In this document: in pieces, positions 18,925 through 19,272 of the stretch | Numbering within the stretch: position 1 is the stretch's first letter | Layout of the letters: each line of letters opens with the position of its first letter | DNA from: a virus | Taxonomy: Duplodnaviria > Heunggongvirae > Uroviricota > Caudoviricetes | Strand: one strand, 5' to 3' | Virus record (IMG/VR): IMGVR_UViG_2531839665_000007 | Location: 1 to 22,029 of that record | Length of the DNA: 22,029 bases | Position numbers and translations under genes: made by a program | Notes under the pieces: model-generated | What the model saw: the letters and a program-made list of their open reading frames with translations, nothing else | Database searches by the model: none | What the model was told of the DNA's origin: nothing

Positions 18925-19272
18925 TCAGCCTGGCATTTCGCGGGCGATATTTTCACAGCTATTTCAGGAGTTCGGCCATGAACGCTTATTACATTCAGGA
19001 TCGTCTTGAGGCTCAGAGCTGGGCGCGTCACTACCAGCAGATAGCCCGTGAAGAGAAAGAGGCAGAACTGGCAGACGACATGGAAAAAGGCCTGCCCCAG
19101 CACCTGTTTGAATCGCTATGCATCGATCATTTGCAACGCCACGGGCCAGCAAAAAGCCATTACCCGTGCGTTTGATGACGATGTTGAGTTTCAGGAGCGC
19201 ATGGCGGAACACATCCGGTACATGGTTGAAACAATTGCTCACCACCAGGTTGATATTGATTCAGAGGTATAA
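18858..19272 (+). pseudogene. gam: gam (RecBCD inhibitor), frameshifted
   Basis: N-terminal 91 residues match lambda Gam (ORF 18858-19175), then the frame changes; the Gam C-terminus ..[37 protein letters not shown] is in another frame (ORF 19048-19272); shift lies in a GGG/AAAAA-containing stretch near 19133-19150. Confidence 0.8.

Follow-up and report, generated by a model that had tools for sequence, protein, structure and literature searches.

Clustered one-base frameshifts in gam and bet of a lambdoid prophage contig from Escherichia coli 4.0967, probably a local sequencing or assembly artefact

The stretch of DNA analysed here, which we call the window, is 22,029 bp long and, judging by exact protein matches, is the whole of contig AFAA02000009.1 in draft assembly GCA_000194495.2 of Escherichia coli 4.0967, an O145:H2, Stx2-positive STEC strain sequenced at the J. 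Craig Venter Institute (PMC3359367). The assembly is a JCVI draft from about 2011. Positions 19120–19160, where the initial annotation placed a frameshift in gam, belong to the pL (leftward early) operon of a lambdoid prophage. Genes in the window are arranged N-ral-ea10 (DUF2528)-cIII-kil-gam-bet-exo, as they are in lambda-type relatives, and gam occupies the pL position between kil and bet that is characteristic of Gam. The closest relatives are the intact prophages carried by E. coli strains JB2 and OkiPb01675, both with complete genomes; to these prophages the window is 99.5–99.6% identical over positions 332–21739 (21,408 aligned bases). Of the 38 window proteins, 29 have identical counterparts in the JB2 prophage, and the remainder, with the exception of Gam and Bet, differ by substitutions only and are full length; cI, cro, cII, N, O, P, Q, and the lysis genes are all full length.

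Several features of the window lie apart from the gam region. Positions 1–331 bear no relation to the terminase sequence found at this place in the closest prophages, which marks a mosaic or contig-end boundary. At the other end, the window diverges from the closest relatives from about position 21606 and is unrelated to them from 21740 to the contig end, a mosaic boundary. A variant of the TraR/DksA family encoded at 21475–21696 is present on no other contig of a 153-billion-gene index. At 8146–8210 the unit AAATAG is repeated perfectly in tandem, with 10.8 copies. The two closest prophages have 4 and 2 units fewer, so the array represents a small variable-number repeat. It lies upstream of a 590-aa ORF (8526–10298, plus strand; WP_000612803.1), an insertion into the leftward nin region that is read from the opposite strand; this ORF is without a Pfam or PADLOC match, is conserved in related prophages, and could be an accessory gene of the phage. 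Where lambda has rexAB, between cI and N, the window has a two-gene cassette (15639–16181 and 16169–16945). Its products are a 180-aa protein that matches DUF6978 weakly and a DUF1828 protein of 258 aa, and they weakly match parts A and B, respectively, of the PADLOC candidate defence system PDC-M24 (E-values of 1.5e-3 and 6e-7).

The gam lesion was resolved by a three-way alignment of the window with the JB2 and OkiPb01675 prophages and a close-up comparison, and its deletions were identified relative to these two intact prophages and phage 434. The initial annotation had reported that the N-terminal and C-terminal parts of Gam are both present in different frames and that the break lies amid short G and A homopolymers. 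Both observations are correct at 19120–19160, although the lesion is not one frameshift: two separate 1-bp deletions, GGGG to GGG and AAAAAA to AAAAA, lie 8 bp apart and together shift the frame by −2 (table 1). Frame A reads normally through CIDHLQRHG and continues with nine aberrant residues (PAKSHYPCV) to a TGA stop codon. The N-terminal ORF matches the Pfam Gam model (PF06064) at positions 1–60 of 98 (residues 41–100, E-value 3.9e-36, 123.6 bits) and the ORF in the +1 frame matches positions 57–98 (E-value 1e-22, 80.7 bits). Given that both halves match the Gam profile, each above its gathering cut-off of 25 bits, chance resemblance is excluded. In intact relatives gam is 297 nt long; in the window the GamS frame of about 98 codons is interrupted after codon 56, and the acidic residues that contact the RecB arm are absent from the translated product, their codons lying in the +1 frame.

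Table 1. Positions in the window of the intact and disrupted features of the gam-bet-exo region.
Feature	Position	Strand	Remarks
Truncated GamL-frame ORF, 105 aa	18858..19175	+	ATG at 18858; 96 native and 9 aberrant residues, then stop
Truncated GamS-frame ORF, 65 aa	18978..19175	+	ATG at 18978; 56 native residues and PAKSHYPCV; deposited as EII35879.1
GGG run, first 1-bp deletion	19143..19145	+	GGGG in all close relatives
AAAAA run, second 1-bp deletion	19151..19155	+	AAAAAA in all close relatives
Gam C-terminal 38 codons and normal TAA, +1 frame	19156..19272	+	Codes D107, E111, E114, E118, and E125
Premature TGA stop	19173..19175	+	Created by the net −2 shift
Synonymous A to G (GCA to GCG), private	19206	+	51 bp downstream of the gam deletions
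Truncated bet ORF, 170 aa	19278..19790	+	Deposited as EII35889.1
AAAA run, 1-bp insertion	19737..19740	+	AAA in all relatives; 590 bp downstream of the gam lesion
bet C-terminal part, shifted frame	19741..20064	+	Ends at the normal bet stop
exo, intact	20061..20741	+	226 aa, identical to the JB2 prophage protein

The initial annotation took a 138-codon frame as the intact form of the gene. This is the historical GamL reading, and the conserved coding unit is instead the 98-aa GamS, the form of Gam that PGAP annotates. In Stx2 phage 06-3462, which is of the 933W type, an intact GamS of 101 aa is preceded by a 40-codon GamL extension that lies in another frame (positions 1501–1927 of locus L002), and prophages of the type found in strain E29 have a different sequence type upstream of GamS, with a kilR-type cell-division inhibitor gene replacing cIII and kil. 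The window shares with lambda (Gam: PF06064; PDB 2UUZ/2UV1, and 5MBV in complex with RecBCD) the gene order cIII-kil-gam-bet-exo in the pL operon, and the intact Gam of the JB2 prophage matches all 98 residues of the lambda GamS chain with three conservative differences. Unlike lambda gam, however, the window gene has a frame that is broken after G96 (GamL numbering), leaving the C-terminal 42 residues out of frame.

The next gene, bet, is likewise frameshifted, which the initial annotation did not mention. If this lesion is real, Bet would be cut at approximately residue 153 of 261, inside the RecT domain. The inserted A lies at the start of a mosaic patch (19718–20177) in which the window carries a phage-434-like allele, after which it switches back. 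Such a switch and return would fit a chimeric or collapsed consensus of at least two lambdoid prophage copies, one of which truly carries the lesions, in which case the frameshifts would be real but would belong to another prophage. The gam-bet-exo genes do occur in up to four copies per E. coli genome, and no contig that we found among the Illumina drafts of related prophages reaches gam-bet; in several of the drafts that share a near-private variant of hyp106, the contigs stop short of gam. Nevertheless, similar small mosaic patches are natural in complete genomes, and E. coli strain C3 has three of the 434-like sites, so we regard a true lesion imported from a second prophage copy as very improbable. 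The 434-like patch in bet was also considered as proof of an assembly chimera and not upheld, given that C3 naturally has part of it. A search through the near-private variants of hyp106 and TraR found no independent view of the gam locus of strain 4.0967.

The initial annotation considered pseudogenization of gam plausible on the grounds that a constitutively expressed RecBCD inhibitor would be costly in a cryptic prophage. Neither premise agrees with the window. The near-complete identity of its proteins to those of the JB2 prophage, with all but Gam and Bet full length, is not that of a cryptic prophage: gam and bet are the only broken genes in the window (the structural and integration modules lie outside it), and the lesion is not common to related strains, with no second occurrence found in a clean context. 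Nor is gam expected to be expressed constitutively, as it belongs to the pL operon, with an intact N upstream of it and an intact cI to control it. In lambda, gam in the pL operon is under cI control and is repressed in the lysogen; with cI and N both intact, the window gam should therefore be repressed in the lysogen as well.

The distribution of length changes along the contig is informative. Over the 21.4 kb aligned with the closest relatives there are just three single-base indels, all of them 1-bp changes in homopolymers and all within 597 bp; the only further length difference is the copy number of the AAATAG array at 8146–8210. For three uniformly placed events, the probability of falling within 597 bp is approximately 0.002. 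The aligned part of the contig contains 341 homopolymers of at least four bases, 48 of them of at least six bases, and only the three runs in gam and bet differ from the relatives. The neighbours of the gam lesion, an A6 run at 18853 and a C6 run at 18903, are unaltered. The two gam deletions and a private SNP lie within 64 bp of one another, and approximately 15 kb elsewhere in the contig contain two private substitutions and no single-base indel. The SNP is the A to G change at 19206, which is absent from the aligned relatives (the two closest prophages, C3, E29, phage 434, and the two error-laden contigs described below). Because the two deletions and the SNP are so close together, they form the pattern expected of one poor read segment. 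A short patch of poor read support predicts this clustering; a generally error-prone assembly or neutral decay does not.

We surveyed gam with a 76-nt query spanning the lesion in 5,426 complete E. coli genomes, which yielded 3,853 gam copies. The double deletion is present in none of the 3,853 copies, and all but one keep the reference length across the lesion segment. The exception, in strain E29, carries the G4 to G3 change alone. Among 3,205 copies of bet from complete E. coli genomes, not one has the additional A, the best matches being identical save that base. Scans for the exact pattern of the double-deletion allele gave no matches in species-representative genome contigs or in viral contigs. 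As for frameshifted gam genes in general, two complete genomes resemble the window in part: E29 (CM143894) has exactly the G4 to G3 deletion of the window, and C3 (CP010119) has a 1-base frameshift caused by an additional T near window position 19244, with the disrupted gene at 12630–12927 of locus L019; PGAP labels both genes as frameshifted. In contrast to the window, which has two indels in gam and one in bet, E29 and C3 have one indel each and an intact bet. Isolated gam frameshifts occur, or are miscalled, in finished long-read assemblies.

The exact 65-aa product of the truncated GamS frame is encoded by only two other contigs in the gene index, which have different sequence backgrounds. 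Both have the G4 to G3 and A6 to A5 deletions of the window and consequently an identical product; unlike in the window, neighbouring homopolymers are shortened too. The first (L009), a Logan contig from ERR10499664, agrees with the complete genome of ATCC 11775 save for five single-base homopolymer deletions in 1.37 kb, with zero substitutions. The second (L007), contig_1095 of the metagenome assembly ENA ERZ1714338, has 73 indel events in 6.5 kb relative to the closest complete genome found. We considered whether these contigs independently confirm a real allele and rejected this, as both are full of single-base indels. Their gam deletions are plainly technical, which indicates that the G4 and A6 runs of gam are prone to under-calling. 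In the comparison with the gam alleles of related strains that the initial annotation proposed, the gene is intact in the closest prophages, singly frameshifted in E29 and C3, and doubly deleted elsewhere only in error-laden assemblies.

Taken together, the comparisons lead us to posit, with a probability of approximately 0.65, that the frameshifts in gam and bet are a local sequencing or assembly artefact in the draft contig, a technical cause that we infer from the sequence comparisons. Homopolymer lengths would have been miscalled in a short, poorly supported patch of the draft assembly within gam-bet-exo, a region that is multi-copy in many E. coli genomes, and the true prophage would encode an intact GamS/GamL and an intact Bet, as its near-identical relatives do. 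All three lesions are 1-bp changes of homopolymer length (G4 to G3, A6 to A5, and A3 to A4), they are absent from independently determined near-identical sequences, and the gam deletions recur in error-prone data (ERR10499664 and ERZ1714338). A selective logic for the lesions is lacking, given that gam is repressed by the intact cI, that a second hit in gam is redundant, and that the other genes in the window are intact. The position of the bet insertion at the edge of the 434-like patch fits a consensus derived from more than one prophage copy, although this is only suggestive. We are cautious in assigning the artefact for several reasons. The remainder of the contig is free of homopolymer errors and the assembly is generally accurate, so a special local cause must be assumed. 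The affected G4 and A3 runs are short, and such runs attract fewer errors than the 48 longer ones, which are unaffected; the frameshifts are still present in version 2 of the assembly. In addition, homopolymers are favoured by real slippage mutations as well as by sequencing errors. With respect to the two alternatives that the initial annotation offered, pseudogenization or a homopolymer sequencing error, the evidence thus favours the latter, short of proof.

Two further explanations bear on the homopolymer runs themselves. Because the break adjoins the A5 run, a programmed change of frame, by ribosomal frameshifting or by transcriptional slippage at the A run, might in principle allow full-length Gam still to be made. 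This would require a +1 or −2 shift, which is the wrong direction, and an A5 run is too short for efficient slippage. Moreover, all but one of the surveyed gam copies have the reference length across the segment and bet has an unrelated frameshift, so we rejected programmed frameshifting as effectively refuted by the comparative data. A second explanation is that the G4 and A6 runs constitute a real, recurrently mutating spot that switches off Gam, for example in escape from retron Ec48, with bet lost alongside. The double deletion on three backgrounds and the G4 to G3 change in E29 would then be true homoplasy, which we find hardly credible.

The principal competitor of the artefact is that the mutations are real and recent, with Gam lost by two slippage deletions and Bet by one slippage insertion. 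That the contig is clean at its 48 homopolymers of at least six bases excludes a generally error-prone assembly, and the annotated gam frameshifts of E29 (G4 to G3) and C3 (an additional T) in complete genomes provide precedents. Against this stand the confinement of three independent frameshifts to 597 bp of the contig, which has a probability of approximately 0.002 under neutrality; the second hit in gam, which adds nothing after the first; and flanks almost undiverged from those of intact relatives, which leave little time for three events. The allele is found in no other genome or contig in a clean context, and with cI intact a lysogen expresses neither gam nor bet, such that the host exerts no selection on them. 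Strain MG1655, furthermore, is unharmed by Gam expression (PMC5218532). The position of the break within the protein is, by comparison, consistent with a loss of function, as the residues that contact the RecB arm (D107, E111, E114, E118, and E125) are all in the lost part (PMC9836394, Table 1). A conceivable selective reason is offered by the report that Gam triggers abortive infection by retron Ec48 (Millman et al. 2020, as cited in PMC9836394). If the mutations are real, they could have arisen through neutral decay or have been selected, for example because they allow escape from defences that, like retron Ec48, sense the inhibition of RecBCD by Gam. Weighing these points, we consider real inactivation possible but unlikely.

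The structural consequences of real lesions can be predicted from what is known of Gam. GamS (GamL residues 41–138) acts as a dimer, in which the long N-terminal helix plugs the channel of RecB for 3′ single-stranded DNA, with the body acting as a mimic of duplex DNA on the RecB arm (PMC5218532); the ion-pair contacts of Gam include D48, E51, E65, E68, D73, D107, E111, E114, E118, and E125 (PMC9836394, Table 1). If the deletions are real, GamS would end after residue 56 (G96 in GamL numbering), keeping the N-terminal helix and D48, E51, E65, E68, and D73 and losing the C-terminal 42 residues, which include the acidic, duplex-DNA-mimicking residues at the RecB arm. On the basis of its predicted sequence, the truncated Gam would most likely be inactive as an inhibitor.

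Whether artefact or real, the observation is unremarkable for a gene as well known as gam. If the frameshifts are an artefact, the deposited 65-aa Gam (EII35879.1) and 170-aa Bet (EII35889.1) are probably truncated by error and ought not to be tallied as natural pseudogenes, and the CACGGGGCCAGCAAAAAAG stretch of gam is suggested as a recurrent site of miscalling. If they are real, the prophage would resemble the red- gam- mutants of lambda (Spi-/Fec-) in missing the functions of Gam and Bet, and would differ from those mutants in that exo is intact. Red- gam- phages are viable in recA+ hosts with a reduced burst, as is known from classical lambda genetics. The window would then add one more red- gam- lambdoid prophage in STEC. 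Its lesion would be of a familiar type, in a gene that has been studied very closely, and would matter little, if at all, for phage fitness and for Gam-sensing defence systems.
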